A program made the translations under genes and the position numbers. This document shows positions 10,172 to 51,750 of a stretch of DNA of 51,750 nucleotides, one piece after another. Where the stretch lies: assembly GCA_016187495.1 (NCBI GenBank), contig JACPJP010000018.1, positions 1 through 51,750 on the forward strand. Direction: 5' to 3'. Within the stretch, counting starts at the first letter, position 1. Every line of letters starts with the position of its first letter. A model generated the notes under the pieces. It did no database searches. It was not told the origin of the DNA and saw nothing but the letters and a program-made list of their open reading frames with translations. The stretch comes from Candidatus Woesearchaeota archaeon (GTDB lineage Archaea > Nanobdellota > Nanobdellia > Woesearchaeales > GW2011-AR4).

Positions 10172-10369
10172 TCAGCCACCACCAACAACAGTAACGACTT
10201 CAAGCCTATCTTTGTCATTTAATTTTATATTACCGAACTCCTGCCTGTGCACAATGTTTTTATTTAACTCCACTGCAACCACATCTGGATTTAAGTTCAA
10301 TTTGTCCAATAACTCGGAAACATTGTCGCATTCTAATTCCTTTTCCTTGCCATTAATTATTAATTTCAT
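10172..10369 (-). CDS. thiS: Sulfur carrier protein ThiS
   Basis: Ubiquitin-like fold, VAVELN, C-terminal VGGG; directly upstream of thiG. Confidence 0.95.
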   Translation of the reverse strand: MKLIINGKEKELECDNVSELLDKLNLNPDVVAVELNKNIVHRQEFGNIKLNDKDRLEVVTVVGGG

Positions 10370-10445
10370 TTCCACCCCTTAGTGCAGGATAAGCATTGTT
10401 AATTTAAAAAGATTTTTATTGGCAGCATGGCACCTAGAACTAAAA

Positions 10446-32570: not shown

Positions 32571-33365
32571 TTACTTAAGCGCCTTTACTTTCTCGTTGAA
32601 CTCATCAAAAGTTTCATTGAAAATATCCAAAGCCGCATTCAATATCTCCTTGCAGCTTAGCTGCCCCCATGATTCAATGTAAAATATTATATCATTGTCG
32701 TATTTGACCTTTATCTCATTATTGGAGACATCCTCCAGTATTCCTGCAAGATCGTACTTGAATAAATTATCTTTGATTATCTCAAGCTTGCCATTTTTTA
32801 TCTCAAAAATATTTCCATGCGTTTTTTCCACAACCTCTTCCGGATTTTTTACATTTCCTATTTCTATTACAGGCTTGTGCTTATAATACGCTAGACAAGG
32901 GCTCCATTTTGAATGCTCCTTGCCCCTTCCTAGGACAGCAGTAGCCTCCAGCTCCAGGCTTTGCCCTTTTAGCAATTTGACAATAGGCATTTTTGGGTAT
33001 ACCGGCTTTATAGCGGGGTCTTTGCTTTTAAGTTCGGAAGCATCAACCATTCCAGCGCCTTTTAAGGCTTTAAGCGTAATCTTGACTTGGCATCTTGCGC
33101 ACCCTTCTCCATTGCACTTGCACTTTTCCGGCAGATTATATGATTTCAGATCTGTGCTTAAGGGTATTAAACCAAGCCTGTGAGCAATCATTTCATCATA
33201 AAGTATTGAATTATTTTTTGTAAATTCTACATCCTCAATGGCCATAGTTGGGACTTCATCAACTATTATTCTTCTCAAGGTATTTGCAAAAGCAGGCGTT
33301 ATATCCTTGGCAATAAATGAAAGCTTCCCTTCTTCCTTCTCATTTGACAATACCCTTATCTCCAT
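32571..33365 (-). CDS. rpoD: RNA polymerase subunit D (Rpo3)
   Basis: FANTLRR, DEMIAHRLGLIPL, GKEHSKWSP, IESWGQL. Confidence 0.97.
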   Translation of the reverse strand: MEIRVLSNEKEEGKLSFIAKDITPAFANTLRRIIVDEVPTMAIEDVEFTKNNSILYDEMIAHRLGLIPLSTDLKSYNLPEKCKCNGEGCARCQVKITLKALKGAGMVDASELKSKDPAIKPVYPKMPIVKLLKGQSLELEATAVLGRGKEHSKWSPCLAYYKHKPVIEIGNVKNPEEVVEKTHGNIFEIKNGKLEIIKDNLFKYDLAGILEDVSNNEIKVKYDNDIIFYIESWGQLSCKEILNAALDIFNETFDEFNEKVKALK

Positions 33366-33381
33366 TTTAGCACCTCAAACT

Positions 33382-33777
33382 TTACACCCTTCTGCCTCTT
33401 CTTCCTCCTTTCTTTCTGCAGCCATCATGCGGCAAGGGGGTAACATCTTCTATTAAGCCTATCTTTAGCCCCATTCTTGACAGTGCCCTTATCGCAGCCT
33501 GCGCTCCTGGGCCTGGTCCGGTAGCATCGTTATGGCCGCCTTTGGACCGTATCTTTACATTGATGGAGTTTATCCCTTTTTCTATCGCAACCTCTGCAGC
33601 TCTTTTTGCAGCAATCATTGCAGCTGTAGGGCTTGATTCCATCCTGTCGCTTTTTACAACAACTCCGCCAGAGCATTTGCTTATTGTCTCTGTGCCAGTT
33701 ATGTCTGTTATGTGGATTATAGTATTATTGTATGATGCGTAAATATGCGCAATGCCGCTTCTTTCCTTAAATGCCAT
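33382..33777 (-). CDS. rps11: 30S ribosomal protein S11 (uS11)
   Basis: [31 protein letters not shown]. Confidence 0.98.
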
Positions 33778-33779
33778 TT

Positions 33780-34478
33780 TTATTTGCCCCCTTCTTTTTT
33801 CTTCTGCTTATCTCCTTTGCTAGCATGATCTTTTTTCTCAGTTTTTGCAGCTTTCTCTTCTTTATTGTCATTCTTATCCCCAGATTCTTCTTTCTTTTTT
33901 TCTGCTTTATCAGAGCTTTCTTTCTTCCCTTGCTTCTCTTTTCTCTTGCCAGTCTTCACTTCGCTTATTGCTGATCTTTGAGGATGGTCTGCGTTTGAAA
34001 GCACAGAACCCTGAGAAAATCCAATGTTTGCTTCTTCATCCACTGGAACAAGGTATGATGGCGCTGTAACTGTTTTTTCTCCAAGTGCAATGTGCTCATG
34101 GACAATAAACTGCCTTGCTTGCCTGGCACTTGAAGCCAGGTTTTTCCTGTAAACCAGCGTCTGCAATCTTCTTTCCATTATGTCCTTTAACGACAATGAT
34201 AAGACATCTTCAACCTGCGCTTCTTTGTTTATAATGCCCAAGGAATGAAGTTTCGTCAAAAGTTGTTTTGCTTCCTTTTCAGCTTGCGGTTTTTTTGTTG
34301 CTATAAGGTTTTTAGCCTGTCTTGTGAGGTTCCTAAGGACAGAATTCATTTTCCATAACTCATACTTCCTATTAAGGCCGTATTCCTTGACTAGTTCCTG
34401 CTCTGCCAGAATCCTTTCCTTCTGCCACGGATGTGTAGGCTTTGAAAATTTCTTTCTTTGTTTTTTTGGGCTTCCCAT
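33780..34478 (-). CDS. rps4: 30S ribosomal protein S4 (uS4) with charged C-terminal extension
   Basis: [30 protein letters not shown]. Confidence 0.97.
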
Positions 34479-34480
34479 TT

Positions 34481-35050
34481 TTATACCTTTCCCGGTTTGG
34501 CATCCGCCCTTTTGATAACACCTAATGATACTTTCCCCTTATTTTTCCTGAAATTTGATTTTGTCCTTTGGCCCCTGACAGGCAATCCCATGCCATGCCT
34601 GATCCCACGGTAAGACCTGATCCTTTTCATCCTCTTAACGTCATTTTCTTCTGCAAAGGATAAGTTTCCTGTTATAATGTGATAGTCCTTCCCGTCCTCA
34701 TAGTTTTTTCTTCTGTTGAGCATCCAGCCTGGCGCATTGTATTTTCCTGGATCATTCAAAACTTCATCAATCTTCTTTACCTGGTCATCTTTTAGGTAAC
34801 CTGTCTTTGCATTTTTATCTATTCCGGCAATATTGCAAAGCATGTTGGCAAACATAAAACCAACCCCTTTAATTTTCGTAAGCGCCTGGAAAATTTTTTT
34901 ATTTCCATCTAAGTCAGTATTTGCAATCCTTACAAAATACCTGAAGTCTTTGTCTGCAGGTTGGATGCTAGGCTTACGGGCATCTTCTTTTCTCGCAACT
35001 TGAGATCCAGAAGCCTGCTTTACATTATCTTGTTTTTCATGTTCAGCCAT
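34481..35050 (-). CDS. rps13: 30S ribosomal protein S13 (uS13) with N-terminal extension
   Basis: VRIANTDLDG, IKGVG, YRGIRH..GLPVRGQRT. Confidence 0.97.
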   Translation of the reverse strand: MAEHEKQDNVKQASGSQVARKEDARKPSIQPADKDFRYFVRIANTDLDGNKKIFQALTKIKGVGFMFANMLCNIAGIDKNAKTGYLKDDQVKKIDEVLNDPGKYNAPGWMLNRRKNYEDGKDYHIITGNLSFAEENDVKRMKRIRSYRGIRHGMGLPVRGQRTKSNFRKNKGKVSLGVIKRADAKPGKV

Positions 35051-35071
35051 TTTGAGCAATTGAGTAATAAC

Positions 35072-35144
35072 AGCCGAGAATATAGCACTTAAATCCATAT
35101 ACTCATTATATGAACCCTAAAAGCGCTCTTATCGAACTCGGGCT
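35072..35144 (-). promoter_or_regulatory. Long hairpin in the 5' leader of the rps13 operon
   Basis: On the mRNA strand AGCCCGAG/CTCGGCT, AGCGCTT/AAGTGCT and GGGTTCATATA/TATATGGATTT nest into one stem that starts about 28 nt below TTTATAAA. Confidence 0.55.
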
Positions 35145-35325
35145 TAATTAATAGGAGAGAAAATAAGGCTTATTTATAAAGATTATGATTGTAGGTTCTG
35201 GTGCGTAAGTGGGTGATGGATTAAGCGGTGCGTTAAGGGTGATAAAAGGTTACATATTAAGGGAAATAGATGAACTAATAGTGGCAGTAGAACGAGCTAA
35301 AATAGAAGCCGAAAAACAAGCAAAA

Positions 35326-35568
35326 TCACCTATCAAGAAATTTTATAATCTTTTGGAGTATTGTTTTAATGCTCTTAAGGAAATAAATAATACTATTTTC
35401 AAATATTTTAAGAATGACAAAAATTCCAAGAAACATTAAAGCCCACTTAAATATCCCTGCTATAACAAACAGAATAACCAACAATAGAGATATTCTTTTC
35501 AACCAAATAATTAGAATAAAATAATTAAAGAAAAAATGAAAGATTTTTCTTTTAGGTTTCGAAGTCAT
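35326..35568 (-). CDS. Small hypothetical membrane protein
   Basis: 80-aa hydrophobic ORF; overlaps a competing + strand ORF (35209-35439). Confidence 0.4.
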   Translation of the reverse strand: MTSKPKRKIFHFFFNYFILIIWLKRISLLLVILFVIAGIFKWALMFLGIFVILKIFENSIIYFLKSIKTILQKIIKFLDR

Positions 35569-35720
35569 ATACCTACATTTTATTTATTGTTATTTAATGC
35601 TTTCTCCAATAATTCCATCAATCTACCTCATTCCACCTCAACCCACACTCCAGATTTTAAGACAGTATAATTCCTATCGCCGAATGTTGCATTTTCACTG
35701 CTCAAAAACCAAAAATATAT

Positions 35721-35740
35721 AAGTAAGATATGTTTTACTT
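35721..35740. promoter_or_regulatory. Candidate AbrB-type autoregulatory operator
   Basis: AAGTAAGA-TATG-TTTTACTT imperfect palindrome between an AAATATATAA box and the AGGAGG SD of the antitoxin gene. Confidence 0.45.
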
Positions 35741-35764
35741 TTCCTATAATTAAGGAGGATTAAA

Positions 35765-36025
35765 ATGGAAGTAGAATTAACAAGAATATCGGAAAAGGGC
35801 CAAGTTGTAATACCCAGCTCTCTAAGGAGAGTGATGAAAATAGAAAAGTCAGACCAGTTTCTGGTATTTGGGGAAGGGAATACAATAATACTTAAAAAAG
35901 TTGAAAAACCAGCTTTTAAAAAGTCTTTTGAGCAAATAGCCAATCCTTTACAAAAAGCAGCCAAACAAGTAGGACTAACAAGAAAAGACTTGGAAAATGC
36001 AATTAGGGATGTAAGAAATGCTTAA
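35765..36025 (+). CDS. AbrB/MazE/SpoVT-family antitoxin
   Basis: TRISEKGQVVIP..LR; strong SD; overlaps the start of a PIN gene. Confidence 0.9.
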   Translation: MEVELTRISEKGQVVIPSSLRRVMKIEKSDQFLVFGEGNTIILKKVEKPAFKKSFEQIANPLQKAAKQVGLTRKDLENAIRDVRNA

Positions 36026-36113
36026 ACTTGTTTTAGACACCAATACTTTTGTGTCTGCTTTCTTTTGGAAAGTCGCCCATATCCAAAAAGTTAAGTACCT
36101 GCCCGAAAAGTAG
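36018..36113 (+). pseudogene. Truncated PIN (VapC-like) toxin
   Basis: MLKLVLDTNTFVSAFFW is a PIN N-terminus; similarity is lost after about 18 codons and the frame stops at codon 32. Confidence 0.8.
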
Positions 36114-36214
36114 GGTTTTTGTATAAAAAGTCAAATATCAAAAACTATGTTTATTTTCAATATAAACAATTTATCTGAATAAAGTTTATAAACATAGTCA
36201 AAAATTCCTATATT

Positions 36215-38956
36215 ATGGGCTTAACTAAAGAGGAAGTTAAACATGAAATTTTGAAATTAATTTCTTTATGTAATAAGAAAATAGAAGTTGGCGAAATTGA
36301 ATTTAATGAAGAACAAACTTGCAACGATTTGATAAAACCTCTGTTTAAAGTTTTAGGTTGGGATGTTGATAACCAAGAATATGATGAATTTATTTGTCAA
36401 TCAAAGTTAGGTAGAAAAAGATTAGATTATTTAGTGAAGTGTGATGGGATTTCAAGATTTTTTGTAGAAGCCAAAAAACTTAATAGGGATATTTATAACA
36501 ATGAAGAAGATTACACACAAACATTAAAGTATGGTAGAAGCAATGGACTACCATTTGCTATTTTAACTAATTTTAGGGAATTTTTAATTCTGTATTGTAA
36601 TTTTGATACGTCAAATATTTTTCAAACTATTGTAAGAAAGAGAATAAAATTATTAGATGGATTCAATGATGAGGATTTTGATTTAATTTGGGAATTTAGC
36701 AAAGAAAGGATAAAGAACAAAGACGAAAGATTTAATTTATTAAAAAAGCATATCAATCCAAATGTAGGATTTAGAGAGCCAGTTGATAAAGAATTGACGA
36801 TTTATTTTTGGAAATGGAGAGATAAATTATTAAGGAATGTTAAATCTCATAGAATAAAAAATAACATTACCAATGATACAGATTTTGGATATATCGAAGA
36901 AGAACTTCAAAGATTCATTGATAGATTTATATTTATATGTTATTGTGAAGATAATGAAATTGAAGATGTAAAATTATTACATCTATTAAATCAAAAAAAA
37001 GAAAACCACCCATTTAATCTTTTAGGAGCTATTCATAACTTATTTGGAGACCCTTATAATCGAAGGTATAATAGTGATTTATTTAGAAGTGGACTTTGTG
37101 ATAAATTTTACATTGAAGATGATGTTTTAGGAGATATAATAACTGATTTAAGAAGACCAAAAAATTCAGTTGCTTATGATTTTAGTGTTATACCAATTGA
37201 TGTTTTGGGAACAAGTTATGAAGAGTTTATCGGGCATATTCTAAAAATTGGTAAGGGAGTAACCCAAAAGTTAGATATTGGCAAAAGAAAATCTGAAGGA
37301 ATTTATTATACTCCCCCGCATATTGTTAGTTACATATTAGAAAAAAGTCTTGGTGAATATTTTAAATCACATAAAGATTTTGAAAATCTAAAAGTAATTG
37401 ACCCCACTTGCGGTAGTGGTTCTTTTTTATTGAAAGCTTTTGAAATTCTGGTTGAAGAATACAAAAATATAAATCAAAAAGAAGAGGTAATGTATAATGA
37501 AAAGATTAACCTACTCTTAAATTGTTTATATGGGGTAGATAAAGATGAAAGAGCTTGTGATATTGCCAAATTAAACTTATCTTTAAAGTTGGCTACAAGG
37601 AGAGAAAAAATTCCTGAACTTCATGATAACATCCTAAATTATGATAGCTTAATTGATGATGAATCTATTACTGGAAATAAAGGATTAAAATGGCAATTTT
37701 ATTTTAAAGATTTTTATAATGATAAAGGATTTTTTGATGTAATAGTTGGCAATCCCCCTTATGTTCACCAAAAGGGAGAAAAAGGAAAACCAAAAATCGA
37801 AATGAAGACAAGAGATTATTTTAGAAATAAATATGATTATGTGTATTCTAAAGATGAATCGACAAAAGGCGGAGTAAAATTAAATATGTTTGTCCCATAT
37901 ATTGAACGATTTATAAAATTATTGAGAGAGGATGGTTATTTTGGGTTTATAGTTCATAAGAACTTATTAAGGGTTGAATCGTACAAATTCATAAGAAAAT
38001 TTATTTTGGATAGCTGTGTAATCAAAACAATTGTAGATATGGCTTCAAGTGGTTTTAAGATAACTGGCGAAACAGCAATTTTTATTTTAAAAAAAGAGTC
38101 CAATGAAAAAATTAGAATGAACAATAAGATTGAGGTAATAACTCATATTCCAGACGTAGATATTAAAAATGGAACTAAATCCTTAATTAGCCAAAGTTCA
38201 TTCTATAAAAGTGGTTATATATTTAATATTTACTCAACTCCAGAATTAGAAGAAGTAAAAAATTCTGTGCTAAAATCATCTGAACTTTTGTCTTATTTAG
38301 ATGAGTCCGAAGAACTTAAAATTGTTAGTTTTGGTTTTGGAATTGACAATAAATATATAGTAAACAAAAAAATAGATTCTGATTATAAGCAATGTATAAG
38401 GGGGAGAGATATTGTGAAATTTGGATTAAAACCAGTTAAGAAATTTGTTTATTACAATAAAAGAGTATTGACCAGAATTGGAGATGAACAGGCATTTTTG
38501 AGCAAAGAAAAAATTGTTATGCAGAGAATTGCTGGTAAGATAATAGCAACACTTGACGAGAAGCAAAATTATTGTGAAAACTCAATAAATATGATACTGC
38601 CTACATCTAATGGAATTAATTTAAAGTATCTTTTAGGCATTTTAAATTCAAAGTTAATTGAATTTTATTATAAAAATTTTATAAATAATAGAGACCAAGT
38701 AACTAATAATGTAACTCAAACTTCTTTAGGAAAAATACCAATAAGGATTAACAAACAACATGAAAAACAAGTTATTGAATTAGTTGATAAATTATTATTA
38801 ACACAAGAAGAATTAGTCAAGTTATCAGAAAACGACAAAGAATACCGTAATTTAAGTAAAATTTTTGATAGATATAGCAAGCAGTTAGATGAAGAAATCT
38901 ATGAACTATACGATGTAAAAACATTCAAGGGTATAATAGAAAAGAGTTTGGAGTAA
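36215..38956 (+). CDS. Type IIG restriction-modification enzyme (endonuclease + N6-adenine MTase + specificity domain)
   Basis: N-terminal DY..VEAK..Q..Y..LTNF nuclease, GIYYTP, DPTCGSGSF, GNPPY, TaqI-like C-terminal YLLGILNS..DEEIYELY; very AT-rich. Confidence 0.92.
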   Translation: MGLTKEEVKHEILKLISLCNKKIEVGEIEFNEEQTCNDLIKPLFKVLGWDVDNQEYDEFICQSKLGRKRLDYLVKCDGISRFFVEAKKLNRDIYNNEEDYTQTLKYGRSNGLPFAILTNFREFLILYCNFDTSNIFQTIVRKRIKLLDGFNDEDFDLIWEFSKERIKNKDERFNLLKKHINPNVGFREPVDKELTIYFWKWRDKLLRNVKSHRIKNNITNDTDFGYIEEELQRFIDRFIFICYCEDNEIEDVKLLHLLNQKKENHPFNLLGAIHNLFGDPYNRRYNSDLFRSGLCDKFYIEDDVLGDIITDLRRPKNSVAYDFSVIPIDVLGTSYEEFIGHILKIGKGVTQKLDIGKRKSEGIYYTPPHIVSYILEKSLGEYFKSHKDFENLKVIDPTCGSGSFLLKAFEILVEEYKNINQKEEVMYNEKINLLLNCLYGVDKDERACDIAKLNLSLKLATRREKIPELHDNILNYDSLIDDESITGNKGLKWQFYFKDFYNDKGFFDVIVGNPPYVHQKGEKGKPKIEMKTRDYFRNKYDYVYSKDESTKGGVKLNMFVPYIERFIKLLREDGYFGFIVHKNLLRVESYKFIRKFILDSCVIKTIVDMASSGFKITGETAIFILKKESNEKIRMNNKIEVITHIPDVDIKNGTKSLISQSSFYKSGYIFNIYSTPELEEVKNSVLKSSELLSYLDESEELKIVSFGFGIDNKYIVNKKIDSDYKQCIRGRDIVKFGLKPVKKFVYYNKRVLTRIGDEQAFLSKEKIVMQRIAGKIIATLDEKQNYCENSINMILPTSNGINLKYLLGILNSKLIEFYYKNFINNRDQVTNNVTQTSLGKIPIRINKQHEKQVIELVDKLLLTQEELVKLSENDKEYRNLSKIFDRYSKQLDEEIYELYDVKTFKGIIEKSLE

Positions 38957-39068
38957 TCTGGCTTTGTGTAAGAAGTGGCTTCCGTGTATAAAGTAAGGAT
39001 TCTGTGTAGAAAGTCAAGGGAGTGTGTATAAAGTCGGGCAAAATTAAGACTTATTATACAAAGCAGAT
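38955..39068. mobile_element. MITE-like element with terminal inverted repeats and phased internal repeats
   Basis: Left end AATCTGGCTTTGTGTAAGAAGT; right end (reverse complement) AATCTGCTTTGTATAATAAGTC; internal GTGTA..AAGT copies at 38984, 39004 and 39024. Confidence 0.55.
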
Positions 39069-39123
39069 TGAGGGTGCTGTCTAATCTGCGTGACTTTTAG
39101 CTTTTACTTGTTTGCCTGTCGCT

Positions 39124-39618
39124 TTAGGGGACTTTGGAAAAAAACCAAACAATAATTATTATTATAGCCATACCAAAAATTAATATCCTAATTAACCAAT
39201 TTAATCGAGAGCCTTCTTGAGGATATATCTTAAGAAATTTAGAATAGATTAATACCGATATAGCCAATAGGAATATTATGATGGTTATTAAGAAAATCAT
39301 CGATATTGAATTATAAATTATATCTTTGATAGAAGCATCTTCTTTAATATGAGCAGGTTTCAAATTTTCCATATAAGGTTCAATCTGAATTATAAAAGCC
39401 ATTAGTGCAGTTATTGAAATCACAATAGTTCCCAGCATTAAAACCTCATTAAAATCAGCCTGCCTTCTCTCTAATTTTCTTGTTTCTTGTAAGCTCTCTA
39501 ATTGAACTATATCGACACAAGTATTATGGTTATGGGGAACAATTTTCTTGCAATGAGGGCAAAGCAAGTGATTTTCATCAATCCTTTCAGCTGGCTCGTA
39601 ATTAGCTATTATTAACAC
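39124..39618 (-). CDS. Hypothetical membrane protein with N-terminal CxxC
   Basis: CPHC followed by three hydrophobic segments; start uncertain. Confidence 0.55.
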   Translation of the reverse strand: MLIIANYEPAERIDENHLLCPHCKKIVPHNHNTCVDIVQLESLQETRKLERRQADFNEVLMLGTIVISITALMAFIIQIEPYMENLKPAHIKEDASIKDIIYNSISMIFLITIIIFLLAISVLIYSKFLKIYPQEGSRLNWLIRILIFGMAIIIIIVWFFSKVP

Positions 39619-39676
39619 CTATTTATTTTATTTTGATTATCATTATAAACTTTTCTTCAACAATTCCACCCCATTC

Positions 39677-39931
39677 CTAATAAGCCCTTGACCTTTTCTC
39701 AATATCAGAAATAAATACTAAACTTTCCTCATAATGGACCGTATATTGTATCCTATGATCTCCAACCCTGACTCTGAATATTTTTTCCTTTCGGTTTACT
39801 ACTCTCTTGACATCGGTTGGAAACGGTTCTGCACATAATTTTTCTATTCTTTCAATTATTCTTTTGGCAAGTTGCTCTTCAGCTTTATTGAGAAATTTTT
39901 TAGCATGGGAAGAAAGTTGAATTTCAAACAT
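39677..39931 (-). CDS. relE: RelE/ParE-family toxin
   Basis: AKKFLNK, FRVRVGDHRI.Y, IEKRSRAY; 84 aa. Confidence 0.92.
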   Translation of the reverse strand: MFEIQLSSHAKKFLNKAEEQLAKRIIERIEKLCAEPFPTDVKRVVNRKEKIFRVRVGDHRIQYTVHYEESLVFISDIEKRSRAY

Positions 39932-39932
39932 C

Positions 39933-40136
39933 TTATAATCCTAGCTCTTTTTTAAGTTCAGAAAGCGATGTAGCTTTTCCTTCTTTGAGTTCTTTTAGGC
40001 TCTCTTCAAATCTCCTGCTTTCTTCCGTAGTCATTATTGTATCTGGATCAAACATATGCCTTTTGATGAATGTAACATCCTCCTTAATCCCCTTAAGCTC
40101 ATCATAAATTTTTCGTATTGTGGTTGTTTCTGCCAT
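39933..40136 (-). CDS. Antitoxin partner of RelE
   Basis: 67-aa gene 1 bp upstream of relE with the typical EE...SLKELKEGK..SLSELKKELGL tail. Confidence 0.85.
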   Translation of the reverse strand: MAETTTIRKIYDELKGIKEDVTFIKRHMFDPDTIMTTEESRRFEESLKELKEGKATSLSELKKELGL

Positions 40137-40187
40137 AGGGGAACCAATAGCATATTAGGATATTTAAATCTTATGGAATAATTTAAC

Positions 40188-42080
40188 CTAATAATTCACC
40201 AGAATCTCGACATCTTTCCCGAAAATATTCTTTAAATCCTCAAATATAGGCTCTTTGATAAAAACTTTAGGCGGTATTTCCACTTTTGTCAAAACCTTCT
40301 CAAGTTCCGCCAAAGAGCTTTTTTCCGTCGTTCCTAGGCTTCCGTCTTCCTTGATCTTTGCCTTGCTTATCTCCTTTTCCTCATGGTCTATATCATGTAT
40401 AATGAAAGCAACGTCTCCAAGCAAGATTACTTCCCCATATCTGCTGCCGTGCTTCACTCTTATCTTTGCCCTCTCTAGCTCTCTCCCTCTTTTGCGCTGC
40501 AAATATTCAACTAAAAACTTGATGAATTCATTAGAGTCTTTCTTCACTTTCTCGACCTCAACTCTAGTCAGCTTTTTTTCATCATAATCTTTCTTTGCCT
40601 TTAATATCTCATTCAATATCCTCAAAAATTTTGCTGGAATCTTGCCTTGGCTGATGAGCTCGTCCTCAAACAATTTGACAACTTCCTCATCCTCTACCTT
40701 TTCAACACCTTCCATGCGCAGAACATCCCTTATTATTGTGACAATAGTCTCATAAATCTTGACCATATCATCTTCTTCCTTTATCCTCTCTATTTGCGTA
40801 AACAATCTTTTGATCCTTTTTAGGTACTTATCGCTTTCATCCAGCAGCTCGTCTATTTCTTTTCCACTTACATCCTTTCTTTCGCCATGCTCGATTGCTT
40901 TCCTCAGATCTATTACTCTCTCAAGCGTCTTGACATACTTGTCCTCAAGCATATTCTCCTTCTGCACGAAAATTTCCCTCATTAATGCAGCTGTCTCTTT
41001 CGGAGCAGGGGGAGGAACTCCATGAAGCATCAAAGCAGCCTGCGAAGGCGTCAATATTGCATAATAAATATCTTCCATGCCTATATCTTTAAGCTTTAAT
41101 TCAACCCTCTTTAGCATTTGTTCGCCGGAACCCATAAACATGTCTATTGCCTCAGGACTTGGCTTTATCTTTCCCATCTTCAGCAATTGTTTCCATGCCA
41201 TGAAAATACCCCTGTCATAGAATGGAACTCCATCTCTAAGCAAAGTAAATATTATTGGATTGGCTTCCCTTAAGCTGTCCCAGAAATCCGTCAAAATGTA
41301 AACTTGTATGTTTAGCTTATTCTTTATGCCTGTAAGTTCGCCTGCCTCTATGCCAATTCCTATTATTATTGCCCTTAGCTTGTCTTTCAATTCCGCTCTT
41401 GTCATCTTTTTGACGTCAGTATCGTCAATAACAATCCATACATCGATATCAGAGCTTGGAGTTGCCCTTCCTTGCACTAAACTGCCTGCTAAAACATAGC
41501 TTACAATGTACTTTTCAAACTTCTTTAGAACCATGGTCTTATGTATTTCCGCTATCTTGATTGCGGCTAGCATGCCTCTATCAAATATAGGCGCAGATAA
41601 AGCTATCAGCTGCAATACCTCATATTTGCCGTCATAGCAGTTCTGCCATAACTCTGATAATATCACAACTTGCGGAATTAGATTTTTGTCAATCTCCTTA
41701 GCCGTATTGCTCATTATGACACTAAGCTTGTCTTTTAGCTCAAACTTAGACATCTTCTTGCTGTCGAAATCATCTACAAGAACAAGAACGCTTATTTTGT
41801 CTTTGTCGGCTAGCTGTTGCGTACTATGTTTTTGCAAATCTTGCTGCTGCTCCGCAGCCTTTGGCGGAGGCAATAGAGTAATCCCAACAATATATTTGTC
41901 GAATTTCTCTAGTATTATCTTCTGAAATTTGTCAAGTTTAGTCTTTATGCTCTTTAATTTTTCCTGGACATCTTTTGGCAGCTTTTCAAGACTTTTTTCC
42001 GGCAAAGCTGTATTGCCTTCTTTTACAGCCGCACTTCCAGAATCAGTTTTATCCCCATCTTTATTTCTTTTTTTCGCCAT
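40188..42080 (-). CDS. Tandem minimal-nucleotidyltransferase domains plus HEPN-like helical domains
   Basis: Active-type GS..G.ATPSSDIDV in the second repeat, degenerate first repeat (shared KF.KYIV and VDD.D.KKM...ELKDKL), followed by the helical bundle YYAILTPSQAALM. Confidence 0.75.
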   Translation of the reverse strand: MAKKRNKDGDKTDSGSAAVKEGNTALPEKSLEKLPKDVQEKLKSIKTKLDKFQKIILEKFDKYIVGITLLPPPKAAEQQQDLQKHSTQQLADKDKISVLVLVDDFDSKKMSKFELKDKLSVIMSNTAKEIDKNLIPQVVILSELWQNCYDGKYEVLQLIALSAPIFDRGMLAAIKIAEIHKTMVLKKFEKYIVSYVLAGSLVQGRATPSSDIDVWIVIDDTDVKKMTRAELKDKLRAIIIGIGIEAGELTGIKNKLNIQVYILTDFWDSLREANPIIFTLLRDGVPFYDRGIFMAWKQLLKMGKIKPSPEAIDMFMGSGEQMLKRVELKLKDIGMEDIYYAILTPSQAALMLHGVPPPAPKETAALMREIFVQKENMLEDKYVKTLERVIDLRKAIEHGERKDVSGKEIDELLDESDKYLKRIKRLFTQIERIKEEDDMVKIYETIVTIIRDVLRMEGVEKVEDEEVVKLFEDELISQGKIPAKFLRILNEILKAKKDYDEKKLTRVEVEKVKKDSNEFIKFLVEYLQRKRGRELERAKIRVKHGSRYGEVILLGDVAFIIHDIDHEEKEISKAKIKEDGSLGTTEKSSLAELEKVLTKVEIPPKVFIKEPIFEDLKNIFGKDVEILVNY

Positions 42081-42211
42081 AACTAAAAACTCCGAGTTAT
42101 TTTGTTGTTTATAAAGGTTTTGAAAAAGCTTTGCTGTTTCAAATACCTAGAAAAAATGGTTTTTTCCGCTGCTTTTGATGACCTTCTTACAACATAAAAA
42201 TAAGATACTAT

Positions 42212-42380
42212 TCATCTTCGCGAATGATGTATCTTTTTGGCCCTGATTTTGATGAGCCCTCGTAATTTGTCTCTTCCCAGTTTTAGACATGTCTCTACAG
42301 CTTCTGCTGGTGTCTTTTTGAGACTTTGATGCGGATTGACAAAGTTGTGTATGATGTGCCTCAGATTAAGAAATGCTTTT
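42212..42380 (-). pseudogene. C-terminal relic of a DDE transposase
   Basis: HNFVNPHQSLKKTPAEA...LKLG..KL..LI matches the C-terminus of archaeal DDE/integrase-core transposases; no N-terminal part is present. Confidence 0.65.
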
Positions 42381-42570
42381 AAATAAAAACGCAAAAGTTT
42401 AGTAAATAATATACGCAAGAGAAAGAGGCTTCAGACGTTAGTCTGAATAGTTTCATTTTTAGAAGTTTATTTATAAGCCCTACATTAGATTATTGTGTAA
42501 AGTCGGTTTTATCTTTATACTAATGCAACATATCATACTATTGGAAATTACAATGAGTATATAAAGGCTT

Positions 42571-42618
42571 ACTAATCTAATTTAGCAATAATATACTATT
42601 TTCACTAATCTAATTTAG
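42571..42618. repeat. 15-bp direct repeat pair (candidate operator) upstream of the AAA+ gene
   Basis: ACTAATCTAATTTAG at 42571-42585 and 42604-42618, immediately before a TTTATATA box. Confidence 0.75.
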
Positions 42619-42654
42619 TAACATTTATATATAAGTAATAATATCTATTAGTTA

Positions 42655-44154
42655 ATGAACGAAAAAACAATAATTGACTTTTTATCATTACAAAATAGAT
42701 GGTGGTATAATAAAAATGATTTTCCTTTTGATAAAACATATCAATTTAAGAGAAGTGACTATGGATATATACTACATCAACTCCTCCCAATTAAAGATGC
42801 AATTGTGATTTATGGTCCAAGGGGTGTCGGCAAATCTACCATCTTATATGAACTAATTAGGCATTTATTAGGTTTCCCAAAAGATATCACTAAACACGAC
42901 CAAGAAATAAAAGAATCAAATGAAGGTGGTGTGGATAATAAAAGAATATTATATGTAACTTTTGAAGAATCTTCACTTAGAAATTTAAAGATTCTTGATG
43001 TATTAAAGATTTATAGTAAGTATATCCTAAATGAAGACATATCCCAGCTTGGAAAACAAATCTATGTATTTTTAGATGAAATACAAAATATTGGAGAATG
43101 GGGTGATGAAATAAAGATAATCCAAGACTTAAATTATCCAATAAAATTTATGATTACTGGATCGTCTAGTACAGCTATGGAAAATGAGGCATCTAAAGCT
43201 ACAAGAAGATTAAACTTATATTCTATGCACCCACTTAAATTTTCAGATTTTCTTAGGTACCATTTTTCTGATGTAGCTTTCGATCCTGTGTTAAAAGAAG
43301 CTAGAGCTATAAGGTCAGTGCTTATTGAAGCCTGTAATAAAAATCAACCTCAAAAAATATTAGATTCTTTTTTGCGACTTTACAATAATTTGAAGCCATG
43401 GCAAACCAAAATTGAGATATCTTTTCAAGAATATTTTATTAAAGGGGGGTATCCACAATTACTCGATGAAAAAGACTATTCAAAATGTGCTTCAAGATTA
43501 AGAGAAACTTTTTGGTTAGGATTCCACAAGGATATCGTTTTAGCTAAGGGAATAGGGGACCCAGTAGGCATGCAAGAATTAACGCTTTATATCTCATCAA
43601 TATCTTCTTGTGAAACCAATTATACTTCATTAATGAAAAAAAGTGGAGCTACTACAAACACTGGCATGTTAAAAAAATATTTATACCATCTCGAGAAAAA
43701 TTTTTTAGTTAATATGTCCTTCAAATTTGAAAGAAAACCTTCCAGAAAAAGTTCGTCTTTTAAGATATACCTGCAAGACATTGCCGTAAGAAATATGTTA
43801 CAAGGAATGTTAAACGAACTTCTTTTAAATGACCAAAATCAGTATGGTTTGGCAATGGAAACATTAGTTTTCGACCATTTAGTTAGGCTTTATTTTAAGA
43901 TAAGGCCAGGTATGTTAATGTATTACTGGAAAGATTCTAAAACTAACAAGGAAGTCGATTTTATTTTAAAATTAAATGGAGATTTAATGCCATTTGAAGT
44001 AAAGAAGGCAGATTCCCCTTCCCTTTCTGATGTTATAGGGCTTAGGATGTTTTGTAAAGAAAAATTGCCTGGAATAGTAATATGTGGGAAAAAACTAAGT
44101 TTAGAAGAAAATATCTTGTTTGTACCCCATTGGTTATTCCTTATGATATGTTGA
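42655..44154 (+). CDS. AAA+ ATPase, COG1373/DUF4143 family, with C-terminal PD-(D/E)XK-like domain
   Basis: GPRGVGKS, FLDEIQ, ITGSS, GGYP, KIYLQD, EVDF..PFEVK. Confidence 0.9.
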   Translation: MNEKTIIDFLSLQNRWWYNKNDFPFDKTYQFKRSDYGYILHQLLPIKDAIVIYGPRGVGKSTILYELIRHLLGFPKDITKHDQEIKESNEGGVDNKRILYVTFEESSLRNLKILDVLKIYSKYILNEDISQLGKQIYVFLDEIQNIGEWGDEIKIIQDLNYPIKFMITGSSSTAMENEASKATRRLNLYSMHPLKFSDFLRYHFSDVAFDPVLKEARAIRSVLIEACNKNQPQKILDSFLRLYNNLKPWQTKIEISFQEYFIKGGYPQLLDEKDYSKCASRLRETFWLGFHKDIVLAKGIGDPVGMQELTLYISSISSCETNYTSLMKKSGATTNTGMLKKYLYHLEKNFLVNMSFKFERKPSRKSSSFKIYLQDIAVRNMLQGMLNELLLNDQNQYGLAMETLVFDHLVRLYFKIRPGMLMYYWKDSKTNKEVDFILKLNGDLMPFEVKKADSPSLSDVIGLRMFCKEKLPGIVICGKKLSLEENILFVPHWLFLMIC

Positions 44155-44321
44155 TTAAAAAAGGAATTTAGGTGTATAGCTGACTCAAATTATTATATGA
44201 AACATAGGTTTTTGTGCAAAAAGAGGTTATTGTGCAAAGCCAAAAAAAAACAATTAACTTTAAATATTGACCTATTTTCCCATAAAAATGCCCAATAATA
44301 CTACTTAAAGTAGGAGGGAAG

Positions 44322-45143
44322 ATGGACAAAGCATTAATAGCAGCCACACTGAAGAAAGTAAGGGATAATTCTCCTAAAAAGAACTTCAAGCAGAGCCTTG
44401 ACTTAATTATGAACCTCAAGGGCCTTGACTTAAAGAAGCCCGAGCATCAGGTAAATATATTTGTCACTTTTCAATATGGCACCGGCAAGAATGTTTCTGT
44501 CTGCGCTTTAGTGGAGCCAGATTTAGCATCAAAAGCAAAAGAAGCCTGCGATGAAACAATTACTATCGATCAATTTGAAAGGTTCAAAAGCAAGGCGGAA
44601 GCAAAAAAGCTCGCAAATAAATATGATTTCTTTATTGCTCAATCATCAATAATGCCTAAAGTTGCCACTACATTCGGCCGCTACTTGGGACCGAGAGGCA
44701 AAATGCCAAATCCGAAAATAGGTAGCGTCCTTACCCCTGCTTCTAATATAAAGCAGCTGTGCGACCAGCTTAAAAGGACCGTGCTTTTAGTGACTAAAAA
44801 TGAGCCTACAATAAAGTGCAGAATAGGAAATGAAGACACAAAAGATGACGAGGCAATAGACAACATACTGGCAGTTTACAATAGTGTTGCGCAAAAGCTC
44901 CCCAATGACAAGCAGAACATAAAAAGTGTAATGCTGAAGCTTACAATGGGACATTCATTCGCAATAGGCGCTGAAGAAGAGGTAGAAGTTAAGCCGCAGG
45001 GCAGGGAAAAGGCAAAAGCAAAGGAAAAAGGAGTATTGAAGGAAGAAAAAGCAAAAGCTGCAGAAACTAGCCTTAAAGAAGCTCATGAAACAAACGAAAA
45101 AAGGCAGGAAATAAAGCCAAAATCTAGGAAAAGGGGCAAATGA
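44322..45143 (+). CDS. rpl1: 50S ribosomal protein L1 (uL1)
   Basis: KNFKQSLDLIMNLK, LGPRGKMP, KLTMG. Confidence 0.97.
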   Translation: MDKALIAATLKKVRDNSPKKNFKQSLDLIMNLKGLDLKKPEHQVNIFVTFQYGTGKNVSVCALVEPDLASKAKEACDETITIDQFERFKSKAEAKKLANKYDFFIAQSSIMPKVATTFGRYLGPRGKMPNPKIGSVLTPASNIKQLCDQLKRTVLLVTKNEPTIKCRIGNEDTKDDEAIDNILAVYNSVAQKLPNDKQNIKSVMLKLTMGHSFAIGAEEEVEVKPQGREKAKAKEKGVLKEEKAKAAETSLKEAHETNEKRQEIKPKSRKRGK

Positions 45144-46498
45144 CACCGACAATAACTGCAAAAATCTCCGAATATAAGAAGAATGCTGTGGATGAGATGT
45201 CCAGTTTAATCAGGAAGAGCTCTATTACCGCCTTGGTTGATATGTCCAACATACCTGCCCCGCAACTGCAGGCAATGAGGAAGGAAATGAAAGGCAAAAT
45301 AAGTCTTTACATGACCAAGAAAAGGCTGATGAGGATTGCCCTTGACAGATCAAAGAATGAAAAGAAAAACATAGAGGCTCTCGCAAATTATTTTGAGGGC
45401 ATGCCCGCATTTATTTTCAGCAATGAGGATCCATTCAAATTAAGCAGGCTATTGCAAAAAGGCAAGACAAAGGCTCCTGCAAAACCAGGTCAGACGGCTC
45501 CAAGCGATATTATAATCAGCAAGGGCCCAACGCCATTTGCTCCAGGACCGATAATAAGCGAGTTGAGCAGCGTTGGGTTAAAAGTAGGAGTTGAAGGCGG
45601 AAAGATAGCTATAAAGGAAAATGCCGTTATTGCAAGGAAGGGAGAAAGAATAAAGCCCAAAGTTGCAGAGATTCTTGCAAGGCTTGATATAAGGCCGATG
45701 GACGTCGGCTTAGGAATGGTTGCAGCTTACGAAGACGGCATTATTTATACAAGGGGTGTATTGGAAGTTGACGAAAAGGCATTCAACAACAAGCTTAACA
45801 ATGCAGCAGTGCAGGCATTTAATCTTGCATTTAATATTGCTTATACAACTAAAGGCAACATATACTTGTTAATTGCAAAAGCGTTCAATGACGCAAAGGC
45901 TCTCGGATTAAGCCAGAACATATTTGATGGGGGCATTATTGAGCACATATTAGGCAAAGCAGAAAGGGAAATGCTGAGCCTGAAACATATAGCTAATATC
46001 GAAACTGCTGAGAAACCAAAGGAAAAGGAAGAAGAAATCCTTGAAGAAGAAAAAAGCATAATTGAAGAAGAAGAAAAGCTTGAGAAGGAACCGATTGCGC
46101 CAGTTCCTGAAGAGAGAGAAGTCCAGGAAGCGGTGAAGGAAGAAGAGGAAAAGAAGCTTGAGAATGAAAGGATAGAGAAGGAAAAAGAGCTGGAGGAAGT
46201 GAAAGGCTCCAAGGAACGGCAATCAGAGAATGATGTTGATAAAAAAATCAGTAAGATGGTGGAAAACACAAAAAAATTTGTCGAAGGCAAACAAGAGACA
46301 GCCAGTGATATATTGAATGAAGTAAGCCGACAAGAAAAGAAAGAAAATGCGGAACAGCAAAGAAAAGAGACAAGAATCCCGCCTGCTCACGAACTCAATA
46401 TCCAAAAAGAGAAAAAATCGAAAGAAGATGAAAAAAACCAGAAAGAAGTTGAAGAGCTGACCAAGGAACTTTTGAGAAAAGGCACGCTGAGGAAATAA
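45140..46498 (+). CDS. rpl10: 50S ribosomal protein L10/P0 with long acidic C-terminal extension
   Basis: PAPQLQ.MR, APAKPGQTAP.DI, GPT.F.PGP; located between rpl1 and rpl12. Confidence 0.95.
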   Translation: MTPTITAKISEYKKNAVDEMSSLIRKSSITALVDMSNIPAPQLQAMRKEMKGKISLYMTKKRLMRIALDRSKNEKKNIEALANYFEGMPAFIFSNEDPFKLSRLLQKGKTKAPAKPGQTAPSDIIISKGPTPFAPGPIISELSSVGLKVGVEGGKIAIKENAVIARKGERIKPKVAEILARLDIRPMDVGLGMVAAYEDGIIYTRGVLEVDEKAFNNKLNNAAVQAFNLAFNIAYTTKGNIYLLIAKAFNDAKALGLSQNIFDGGIIEHILGKAEREMLSLKHIANIETAEKPKEKEEEILEEEKSIIEEEEKLEKEPIAPVPEEREVQEAVKEEEEKKLENERIEKEKELEEVKGSKERQSENDVDKKISKMVENTKKFVEGKQETASDILNEVSRQEKKENAEQQRKETRIPPAHELNIQKEKKSKEDEKNQKEVEELTKELLRKGTLRK

Positions 46499-46585
46499 GA
46501 AATAATGAAAGTATAATGATTTAGATGGTATAAAGATAAGAAATTAGTTATAATAAAAAACTAAAATTTAATGGAGGTAAATAAA

Positions 46586-46900
46586 ATGGAATATGTCTAT
46601 AGCGCAATGCTGCTGCACAAAGCAGGGCAGAAAATAGGTGAAGCTAACGTAAAAAAAGTGCTTGAGGCTGCTGGCGTAAAAGCAGACGAAGCAAGGATTA
46701 AGGCTTTAGTAGCTACATTGGAAGGAGTGAATATAGATGAAGCAATAGAGAAAGCTGCAGTGCCAGTTGCTGCTGCGCCAGTTGCATCTGCACAGACAGC
46801 AGGTGAAGGGGCAAAGAAGGAAGACACAAAGAAGAAGGTAGAGGAAGAGAAGAAATCTGAAGAGCAGGCAGCCGCGGGATTGGGCAGCCTGTTCGGCTGA
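46586..46900 (+). CDS. rpl12: 50S ribosomal protein L12/P1
   Basis: [11 protein letters not shown] and [10 protein letters not shown]; SD GGAGGT. Confidence 0.97.
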
Positions 46901-46990
46901 TTTTTTATTTTTTTATTTTGTAATTTTGCTGCCTTATATTCATTAAGCCAATTAAAAATATTTTTATATATGCTAATTCTCCCACAAAAA

Positions 46991-47899
46991 ATGAATCAGG
47001 ATAAGGAACCTAAAAAACCAACAAAAACTGAACTATTTGCAGAATTAGACGAGCTGAAAAGCGATGTCAATTTCCTGAAAAAAGAGATGAATAAAACAAA
47101 TGGCGATAAGGAATCATGGTATTCCAGAAAAGAAGAAATTTCCAGAGGAATAAGAGAAAAGATAAATGCTATAAAGCAAAACCGAGAAAAAAGGGACTCT
47201 TTGACGGGAAAGGTCAGGGAGCTGAAAGAAAAAAGGGCAAAGCTTAATGACGAGTTAAGGAAGAAGGTTTTTGAACTTACGGGATTGAAAAAACAATCTG
47301 CTGATTTAATGAAAAAATCTAAAATAACCTATCCTTCCAAGATAAAAACTGATATAGACTCTATCGAATCTAAACTTGAGACTGAGGTTATGTCTTTTGA
47401 TAAGGAAAAGGAGCTTTCAAAAAAGCTCAAGCTGCTCAAAAAATCACTTGCAGACGCCTCAGGACTTATAAGTGTATTGGACGCAATTAAAAAGCTAAAT
47501 CCAGATGTAGGCAGCGCAAAAAAAGAAAGTAATGCAGTGCATAAAGAAATACAGGATCTGGCAAAAGAAAGCCAGGCGCTGCATGAAACCATAATATCAG
47601 AATCCAAGAATGTTGACGAACTCAAGGCAAAAGAGGAAGGGGCATTTTTAAAATTTGTTGAATTCAAGAAAGTATTCAATGAAAAAAACTCCATGCTCAA
47701 GGATAATCTTAAGAGCATGGACAAAATAAGAGCAGAAATCAGCAAGTTCCAGCTCGAGGAGAATGAGAAAAGAAGGCTGCAGGAAGCAATGCTGATAAAG
47801 AATAAGGAACGGGATATTGAAGATAAGATCAAGAGCGGCAAGAAGCTTACAACAGAGGATTTTCTTGTGTTTCAGGAATCTATTAAGGGAACGAAATAA
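46991..47899 (+). CDS. Archaeal coiled-coil protein (COG1340-like)
   Basis: Heptad-rich sequence with RDSL..KVRELK, ET.V.S..KEKEL and C-terminal GKKLTTED. Confidence 0.75.
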   Translation: MNQDKEPKKPTKTELFAELDELKSDVNFLKKEMNKTNGDKESWYSRKEEISRGIREKINAIKQNREKRDSLTGKVRELKEKRAKLNDELRKKVFELTGLKKQSADLMKKSKITYPSKIKTDIDSIESKLETEVMSFDKEKELSKKLKLLKKSLADASGLISVLDAIKKLNPDVGSAKKESNAVHKEIQDLAKESQALHETIISESKNVDELKAKEEGAFLKFVEFKKVFNEKNSMLKDNLKSMDKIRAEISKFQLEENEKRRLQEAMLIKNKERDIEDKIKSGKKLTTEDFLVFQESIKGTK

Positions 47900-51608: not shown

Positions 51609-51750
51609 GAGTCGTGTGTAAGAAATCTACCATTCATTAGGCTCAATGCCCAACTCATAGTAAGCTCTGCCTAGTACGGTAAAATTATATGCACACCACG
51701 TCAATTCGCTTTCCTGCTCTTTTGCAGTATCATTTTTACAAAGGACATAA
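51609..51750 (-). mobile_element. 3' end of a probable IS element: transposase C-terminus (CDS ends at 51627) plus end sequence
   Basis: Minus-strand frame YVLCKNDTAKEQESELTWCAYNFTVLGRAYYELGIEPNEW* resembles DDE transposase C-termini (E....N....ELG); GAGTCGTGTGTAAGAAAT lies next to the stop. Confidence 0.55.

Follow-up and report, generated by a model that had tools for sequence, protein, structure and literature searches.

The repeat motifs around the AT-rich genes of a 51,750-bp stretch of DNA from a Candidatus Woesearchaeota archaeon (the window, which is the entire contig C10 of genome G000) are very probably the transposase-binding end repeats of a family of unit transposons that resemble the insertion sequences (IS) IS5 and IS903, and what the window holds is a set of worn ends and a 106-bp miniature transposon, not a working cassette system. 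By analogy with IS903, the transposase of this family, whose members terminate in GGCTTTG, would bind the repeats, pair both ends and insert the element with 9-bp staggered cuts, and adjacent deletions would have left a type IIG restriction-modification (RM) gene and an AAA_14 ATPase gene of the window as passenger remnants. An earlier note on this DNA had listed five motif stretches, all of which are present, and had read them as IS-like ends that capture and shuffle AT-rich defence genes as cassettes, a reading of the right kind in which several details do not hold; the main feature, four direct repeats and an inverted one arrayed at 38960–39065, had escaped it.

A family of cargo-carrying transposons with GGCTTTG termini

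The ends of the family begin with GGCTTTG, which is followed by a lineage-specific core of 4–5 nt (TGTA, CCTC, CCCG, TAAA or CACA) and then by A.AAGT. One end is composed of three direct ~19-bp repeats, and at the other a terminal repeat and a ~12-nt spacer are combined with one to three oppositely oriented copies. When loci were scanned blindly for a segment that is flanked by an exact 9-bp direct repeat and whose first and last 14 nt match at ≥11 positions, GGCTTTG-ended elements were recovered in 9 of 13 loci, and no element was found in L060, L062, L065 and L067. A collection-wide search returned at least 571 stretches that encode relatives of the transposase; 78 loci were kept, and 34 of these contain a segment of 1.8–11.35 kb with a perfect 9-bp duplication and GGCTTTG (≤1 mismatch) at both ends. 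Forty transposase-bearing elements from archaea and bacteria are bounded by perfect 9-mers and by termini with at most one mismatch to GGCTTTG. A generic detector of ends (GGCTTTG plus a repeated 6-mer) was too noisy, with ~30 mostly spurious genome hits.

Tandem ~19-bp repeats beside an inverted pair also look like replication iterons or the arm and core sites of tyrosine recombinases, and the repeats could in principle be such sites or binding sites of a host regulator. This explanation is extremely improbable, since the same architecture bounds the 40 transposase units and three miniatures with perfect 9-bp duplications at unrelated sites, and no integrase, recombinase or replication initiator domain was found with Pfam among the 20 open reading frames (ORFs) between 34.4 and 51.6 kb of the window. 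Integron attC sites, arm/core sites, plasmid iterons, archaeal origin boxes and Tn7/Mu-type elements were dropped as candidates once the target duplications had been seen.

The family encodes a single transposase of ~410 aa with an N-terminal SWIM zinc finger and an IS5-type DDE domain, and the only transposases among the ORFs of the 40 elements are of the DDE_Tnp_1 type, with or without SWIM. The best NCBIfam model is NF033579 (IS5 family), on which the enzymes of genome G032, of G000 (contig C24) and of genome G121 score 134, 126 and 128 bits (cut-off, 140), with a match that spans the whole 289-position profile from about residue 96. An IS903-type plasmid copy, the ends of which read GGCTTTGTTGAATAAATCG, scores 354 bits on this model, and the nearest plasmid matches of the family are annotated IS5-family transposases at 24% identity. 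Homologues (E ≤ 1e-20), mostly as a single copy, are found in 29 of the 301 genomes sampled from the order, a number that includes G000 and one unpublished genome. The archaeal hosts of the 78 loci include Woese-, Pace-, Aenigm-, Nano- and Micrarchaeota, Methanoperedens, Thermoplasmata and Bathyarchaeota, and elements with the same termini and 9-bp duplications occur in the bacterial groups Acidobacteriota, Chloroflexota, Trueperaceae, Verrucomicrobiales and Myxococcota (loci L101 and L133–L171).

The passenger genes usually span 1–10 kb, and they differ widely between elements with near-identical ends. A DNA methyltransferase or an RM module is carried by 6 of the first 8 elements and by 15 of the 32 further ones (21 of 40 in total), which upholds the suggestion of the earlier note that defence genes travel as passengers. 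The 32 further elements, in which 140 ORFs were scanned, remained after L133 and L164 had been left out of the count because nested or tandem copies blurred their borders. Their RM cargo comprises type IIG/IIB-like N6_Mtase/Eco57I genes with or without Methylase_S, a type III pair, C5 methylases with Vsr and Eco47II, an EcoRI methylase with GmrSD, and a D12 methylase with a PD-(D/E)XK nuclease; other cargo includes ThsB_TIR, PemK, SocA_Panacea (twice), NYN, P63C, DUF559 and a cyclodipeptide synthase, while five of the 32 elements hold unnamed ORFs only and four have little or no cargo. The remaining two of the first eight carry an eight-gene glycosyltransferase/radical-SAM cluster and small ORFs only, respectively. 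The 9.6-kb element L064 (G224:C12, 1029–10621) has eight genes, including glycosyltransferases, a radical SAM/SPASM enzyme and a histidine phosphatase, and lacks defence genes, so the vehicle is not restricted to defence cargo.

Three elements are of particular relevance to the window. The element of G032 (7270 bp, perfect 9-bp duplication) has the same core as the window array. Besides a 411-aa DDE_Tnp_1 transposase with a zinc finger at its N-terminus, it encodes a type IIG-like methyltransferase, a specificity subunit and a PD-(D/E)XK nuclease. Its hairpin-type end (L016, G032:C7, 10885–10964) includes a nested terminal-like copy AGCTTTGTGTTAGAAT, so that this end resembles a whole miniature, which bears on the derivation of miniatures and full elements from one another. 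On contig C24 of G000 lies an element of 5945 bp with a perfect 9-bp duplication, the same end architecture and the core GCTTTGCCTC.. (CCTC), in which a transposase of 371 aa (C24:5229–6344; L028 1229–2344), 57% identical to the enzyme of G032, is accompanied by an N6 methyltransferase and a Methylase_S gene. On contig C7 of G000, three direct repeats (left) and a spacer with an inverted terminal repeat (right) stand 1.6 kb apart, and between them lie ORFs of 183 aa and 63 aa together with MazE and full-length PIN genes (PIN_3, 137 aa); no 9-bp target-site duplication (TSD) was found at this element, and a comparison of its flanks with those of the C10 copy gave no swapped duplications. The right end of the C7 element is separated by 63 nt from an 86-nt tRNA-Ala(TGC) gene (C7:41420–41505; L003 1601–1686), the length of which suggests an intron. 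Members of a family of small lysine-rich ORFs (..LLKILDEE..KEKAKKKKK..) are present inside both the C7 element (40307–40498, minus strand) and the C24 element (10322–10606, plus strand), and the same family is found directly upstream of the ribosomal L1 promoter in genome G008 (L091), where its coding sequence enters the A-run of the promoter.

The choice of target was analyzed in 28 archaeal elements, with the 12 bacterial ones set aside, and an 8-mer that matches TTTAWAWA at ≥7 of 8 positions was counted as TATA-like. Such an 8-mer starts exactly 15 nt from the first base of the TSD (6 nt beyond the TSD) on one flank of 21 of the 28 elements and within offsets 13–17 in 23 of them, and the other offsets (0–59) receive 0–3 counts each across the 56 flanks. 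By these statistics, archaeal elements insert at a fixed distance of 6 nt upstream of a TATA box, and either end of the element can face the promoter.

The miniature transposon at 38960–39065

The motifs of the window lie in an AT-rich island between the ribosomal S13 operon (ending at 35098, minus strand) and the L1-L10-L12 operon (starting at 44322), in which no transposase of the GGCTTTG family is encoded; the same holds for the rest of the window. The features considered here are the following, with scores from a position weight matrix (PWM) where they apply.

35765–36025, plus strand: MazE/AbrB-type antitoxin gene (Pfam MazE_antitoxin, E 7.9e-7).
36018–36113, plus strand: PIN toxin stub of 31 aa (ORF list), broken off at the candidate relic repeat R0.
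36114–36132, plus strand: R0, a candidate relic repeat of the subterminal type (PWM 18.8 bits).
36215–38956, plus strand: AT-rich type IIG RM gene, 913 aa (Pfam Eco57I, N6_Mtase, TaqI_C, HSDR_N; PADLOC).
38960–39065, plus strand: 106-bp miniature transposon (repeat layout, PWM 19.7–24 bits, relatives), made up of R1 (38960–38977), R2 (38978–38995), R3 (38997–39015), R4 (39017–39035), a spacer (39036–39047) and the inverted R5 (39048–39065).
42488–42504, plus strand: motif upstream of the AAA+ gene, without support as an element end.
42655–44154, plus strand: AAA_14/DUF4143 ATPase gene, a candidate defence gene (Pfam AAA_14, E 3.7e-27; DUF4143, E 6.7e-24).
44207–44241, minus strand: solo multi-repeat end of the CACA lineage, with its terminus at 44241 (strict two-repeat test).
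44242–44266, plus strand: upstream edge of the L1 promoter, an A-run followed by the TATA box (44259–44266).
51610–51750, minus strand: end of a different IS, present in at least three copies and breaking the assembly (shared 141-nt contig ends).

The miniature directly follows the stop codon of the RM gene and contains no ORF. Its four direct ~19-bp repeats have the form ..TGTGTA.AAAGT. and are separated by a 12-nt spacer from a single inverted terminal repeat. Its outermost copies, complementary at 14 of 17 positions, form a terminal inverted repeat (TIR) starting with GGCTTTG: positions 38960–38966 match this terminus, 39059–39065 match it with one mismatch, and the final base of the miniature is A, where the family has C. 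The miniature is 87% identical to both ends of the C7 element.

When the 116-nt array region was searched against 401 genomes of the order, counterparts of ~106 bp were found in G321 and G401 (79–80% identity over the full length, with the same four direct repeats and one inverted repeat), and an 86-bp version with 84% identity had been seen in G007 among 40 relatives. All three are flanked by perfect 9-bp direct repeats, which in G321 and G401 read GCTATCAGT and CTTTTTTTG, and in both of these a TATA box lies at offset 15; the miniature of G401 is located upstream of the ribosomal L1 gene. A query with the G032 transposase gave no family transposase in G007 and G321 and only distant matches (34%, 27%) in G401, all three genomes being incomplete. 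Each of these incomplete genomes contains one miniature copy, and G000, which is itself estimated to be 67% complete, contains one miniature and one 1.7-kb derivative. A conserved layout of ~106 bp at different duplicated sites in different families makes repeated deletion in place unlikely and supports the view, from sequence comparison, that non-autonomous miniature copies have transposed. The mini-elements that the earlier note had envisaged are therefore real, as TSD-flanked copies lacking a transposase in these three genomes and as the 106-bp copy of the window.

The dispersal of the motif was assessed with a 19-nt PWM built from 9 repeat units, with which the whole genome (31 contigs, 778 kb, 36% GC) and shuffled genomes were scanned. 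Only three places stand out in the genome, namely the array at 38960, the C7 locus and 36114–36132. Hits of ≥11 bits number 45, against 22–43 in 20 shuffles, and hits of ≥13 bits number 22, including the 9 training units, against 2–20 in the shuffles; the motif is not dispersed or enriched genome-wide by this measure, and the enrichment at the borders of accessory genes that a cassette system implies was not seen in the scan. The motifs at 44207 (11.3 bits) and 51609 (12.1 bits) have unremarkable scores, and the one at 42488, which had been related to the others, falls below 9 bits, at chance level, with neither a partner nor a second repeat.

Five groundwater sequencing runs from two studies hold this stretch, and four of the runs may be where the DNA comes from. 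The contigs of run X1 give unbroken cover of the island, and those of run X5, from the other study, cover parts of it as separate pieces, with no differences listed and with both the miniature and the solo end included. Low-depth contigs (X2, X3) and loose contig ends (X1, X2) share R4, the spacer and R5 and diverge exactly at 39064/39065, so that the R5 end occurs in other contexts within that community and the boundary falls where the family terminus predicts it. No joint at 36114, 38960, 39065 or 44241 was found in the five-run contigs across 33000–47000; the joints listed have sides of at most 38 nt and other positions, and given the 90% threshold they probably stem from other organisms.

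A solo end at the ribosomal L1 promoter

The motif at 44207–44241 had been described as a left-like and a right-like end fused without cargo. It does belong to a transposon end, albeit not to two: its reverse complement reads GGCTTTGCACAATAAC, three bases, TTTTTGCACAAAAACC, and 44235–44241 match GGCTTTG on that strand, which makes it one end with two equally oriented repeats, the interior of which formerly extended to the left, on the AAA_14 side. It is the sole site in the genome at which [GA]GCTTTG is combined with an 8-mer repeated at an offset of 17–21 nt (0.015 expected), and it matches the multi-repeat ends of the full CACA-lineage elements L102, L141, L147 and L160. No partner end was found, as the stretch from 35 to 44 kb has no other TTGCACA-type repeat.

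The L1 promoter block AAAAAAACAATTAACTTTAAATAT, which is common to 5 of 8 congeners, starts at window position 44242, and its TATA box lies 17 nt from the terminus of the solo end, or 15 nt if the run of seven A bases of the relatives is assumed. This promoter has been hit twice independently, by the CACA-type end in G000 and by the TGTGTA-type miniature in G401 (G401:C35, L190 1420–1500). In a synteny search for an empty site, none of the genes of the island or of the S13 operon was found upstream of L1 at the 8 congeneric loci, and the upstream neighbor of L1 in the congeners, a 776-aa protein, has a weak and partial match in G000 (35% over 98 aa, on C6, E 2e-9). Since the upstream genes differ and the match is weak, no clean empty site can be defined there, and only the start of promoter conservation is informative.

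A second CACA-type multi-repeat end, which is degenerate, is present at about C30:11350–11385 (L077), 10 nt from a copy of the IS that ends the window contig. The orthologue of a 588-aa gene located 2 kb from it lies two genes from L1 in G007, so C30 and the L1 side of C10 may once have been neighbors that were split by a transposon-linked rearrangement.

The insertion sequence at the contig end and the cassette hypothesis

According to the cassette hypothesis, IS-like ends bracket each defence gene, and the transposase of the IS at 51.6 kb shuffles the genes in trans and leaves fused ends behind. The IS itself is genuine. The same 141 nt end the contigs C10, C4 and C30, the flanks of which diverge just before AGTCGTGTGTAAGAA (AGTCGTG), and the ORF that stops at 51627 on the minus strand, next to the unremarkable 51609 motif, is the C-terminus of a DDE transposase, as had been proposed; its 40 aa are 90% identical to the C-terminus encoded by a ~1.2-kb IS in G272 with the TIR AGTTGTGTGTAAGAA. 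An exact-match scan of the metagenome contigs for this IS gave 0 hits.

In its favor, the hypothesis has the existence and movement of miniatures without a transposase, the wide variation of cargo between near-identical ends, and the relatedness of the contig-end IS, whose DDE_Tnp_1 transposase is a distant homologue of the cargo-transposon enzyme and which shares the 10-nt core TGTGTAAGAA with repeat R1. The shared core does not extend to the terminus, however: the TIR of the contig-end IS reads AGTYGTGTGTAAGAA and begins with AGTYGTG, not GGCTTTG, and the two enzymes are only 27% identical, so that we see no reason, from these sequences, to make this IS the driver of the GGCTTTG elements. 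Moreover, the motif is not enriched in the genome, the 42488 motif is at chance, 44207–44241 is a single end, neither the RM gene nor the AAA_14 gene is flanked by a target duplication, and no integrase or recombinase is encoded in the island. Capture and shuffling of cassettes are therefore improbable, and nothing in the window displays such a mechanism.

The type IIG RM gene and the candidate relic repeat R0

The description of the island genes as AT-rich and defence-type is fair for the RM gene and the ATPase gene, given their low GC (25–29% and 27–31%, against 38–43% in the flanking operons) and their PADLOC calls (REase_MTase_IIG, E 1.5e-85, and PDC-S01, E 1.2e-43, respectively); the status of the RM gene as cargo is less secure. 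The gene lies between the miniature and R0, and the inverted match between 36118–36132 (TTTGTATAAAAAGTC) and 39048–39062 holds at 14 of 15 positions, as stated in the earlier note, which had also correctly placed the left copy at the stop of the truncated PIN toxin: R0 starts right after the 31-aa stub. In addition, R0 is identical to R3 at 15 of 19 positions, and with 18.8 bits it is the top PWM hit outside the training set in the 778 kb. Hits of this quality are expected 0.235 times per genome and were seen at least once in 41 of 200 shuffled genomes, and R0 gains its credibility from its position, which is 2.8 kb away from the array on the strand of the latter and precisely where the PIN gene is broken.

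The alignment of the stub to its full-length 137-aa paralogue on C7 ends where the stub ends, and the MazE-PIN pair of the window has its paralogous pair as cargo of the C7 element. Similarly, a full-length homologue of the RM gene (28% identity, E 2e-82) is cargo of the 11.35-kb family element L105, genes of the same type IIG architecture are cargo in further elements, and the element of G032 has the same layout as the RM region of the window, in that repeats precede its RM genes and an array that includes a nested terminal-like copy follows them. From these comparisons, it is possible, although short of probable, that the RM gene is a former passenger left between R0 and the miniature by adjacent deletions; the AAA_14 gene beside the solo end is probably a remnant of a passenger region that arose in the same way. 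IS903-type elements are reported to make adjacent deletions, and 0 of 14 IS150-associated deletions left a duplication, in the part of that study drawn on here (PMC11708052). Adjacent deletions of this kind, leaving no duplication, would explain both the PIN stub and the absent duplications.

It may also be that the miniature was inserted, or left, beside an RM gene that had been acquired independently, with R0 a chance match and the RM gene never cargo, a possibility that we place only just below probable. The position and strand of R0, the RM cargo of L105 and others, and the layout of G032 argue against it. Its support is found among several observations that weigh against the transposon interpretation of the window. 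A repeat such as R0 alone would arise by chance in about one in five shuffled genomes, and R0 is a single repeat of the internal type, lacking a clean GGCTTTG terminus, an adjoining second or third repeat and a TSD. None of the 10 closest RM homologues (29–37% identity) is carried by an element of the family or has one of its transposases within 8 kb, and the flanks of the RM homologues (11 loci) hold nothing within ±1.5 kb. The miniature has no 9-bp TSD at 38960/39065 and is not located at a TATA box, the solo end at 44241 likewise has no 9-bp TSD, and no empty-site variant occurs in the contigs of the five runs across 33000–47000. GCC precedes the L1 A-run in 2 of 5 congeners too, so the break of conservation at 44241/44242 is exact only to within 3 nt. 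Lastly, the sole family transposase found in the 67%-complete G000, that of C24, lacks most of the N-terminal zinc-finger segment of the 411-aa G032 enzyme, for which reason it may be inactive, and the core of its element ends (CCTC) is not that of the window ends, for which a cognate enzyme is therefore missing.

A bolder extension of the transposon interpretation, which is rather unlikely, is that the ~106-bp miniatures are true miniature inverted-repeat transposable elements (MITEs), moved in trans by SWIM-DDE transposases that read a promoter-bound or promoter-shaped DNA structure and place the insertion exactly 6 nt upstream of the TATA box, and that leftover ends serve as second ends that capture genes. 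Solo ends and miniatures at promoters would then be ready-made second ends, and an insertion nearby would mobilize the gene in between, which would provide a route by which the family acquires RM and other defence modules and spreads them through the phyla of archaea and bacteria. Snapshots of such capture would be seen in the RM gene flanked by R0 and the miniature and in the nested end copy of G032.

Comparison with known systems

The transposons with worn ends in the window are closest to IS903. The family has a DDE_Tnp_1 transposase with NF033579 as its best model and GGCTTTG termini as in the IS903-type plasmid copy, and its 9-bp target duplication is also that of IS903. It appears to share with the IS903 group a tendency to adjacent deletions that leave no duplication, as described in the part of the above study consulted (PMC11708052). 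It differs in its N-terminal SWIM zinc finger of ~95 aa, in model scores of 126–134 bits against the cut-off of 140, and in its 3–4 subterminal repeats and unlike ends, where the IS903-type copy has one short terminal inverted repeat per end and, to our knowledge, no subterminal repeats. Moreover, its members carry passengers of 1–10 kb (1.8–11.35 kb in total) and are not simple IS of ~1 kb, they insert at a fixed position upstream of the archaeal TATA box, and their hosts are mostly DPANN and other archaea.

The miniatures are like MITEs in being non-coding, 86–106 bp long and bounded by both family termini, with a duplication of the parental length in G007, G321 and G401. Unlike MITEs, they number one copy per searched genome and not tens to hundreds, they are asymmetric inside (four direct repeats and one inverted), and the window copy has no duplication. 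Multiple subterminal repeats, unlike ends, site-selective insertion and defence cargo are shared with Tn7-like elements, as far as the sections cited here describe them (PMC8649781); the GGCTTTG elements are much smaller and have a single IS5-type DDE transposase in place of TnsA, TnsB, TnsC and targeting proteins. The Tn7 duplication is 5 bp, against 9 bp in the family. Integrons likewise have swappable modules of single genes or operons between repeated sites, but the island has no integrase, and its boundaries are transposon termini, of a family with target duplications, and not attC sites. Composite transposons differ from the family, in which each element has a single transposase gene and the borders are free of IS copies.

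In the sections drawn on here, a 2019 survey reported that passenger-carrying DNA transposons were not detected in archaea (PMC6563490), and the main text of a 2026 census of archaeal IS, so far as it was consulted, is without the words cargo, passenger, SWIM and IS903 (PMC13343696). No description of the GGCTTTG SWIM-DDE family was found in the literature searched, the supplements of which lay outside the scope and may bear on the point, and the family is apparently an undescribed variant of the IS903-like transposons. It would give DPANN and other archaea a one-enzyme vehicle for RM and toxin-antitoxin genes that is shared with several bacterial phyla, and its fixed TATA-adjacent insertion offers a testable case of promoter-guided target choice. 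To this, the window adds non-autonomous miniatures and decay products, namely adjacent deletions and solo ends, and it shows the L1 promoter to have been hit a second, independent time.

Other genes of the window

Between the RM gene and the AAA_14 gene, the island encodes a small membrane protein, a toxin of the ParE type preceded by a small ORF and, before the AAA_14/DUF4143 gene, a 630-aa protein with a nucleotidyltransferase domain. A 68-aa ORF at 42212–42418 (minus strand), which has no Pfam match at E ≤ 0.01, has a C-terminus that by eye resembles rve-type integrases/transposases and may be a fragment of another IS. Near the contig end, the gene at 50455–51591 is not a transposase gene; it encodes a THUMP + UPF0020 methyltransferase (RMKL-like), probably a tRNA methyltransferase, and the multicopy IS is inserted 19 nt beyond its stop codon.

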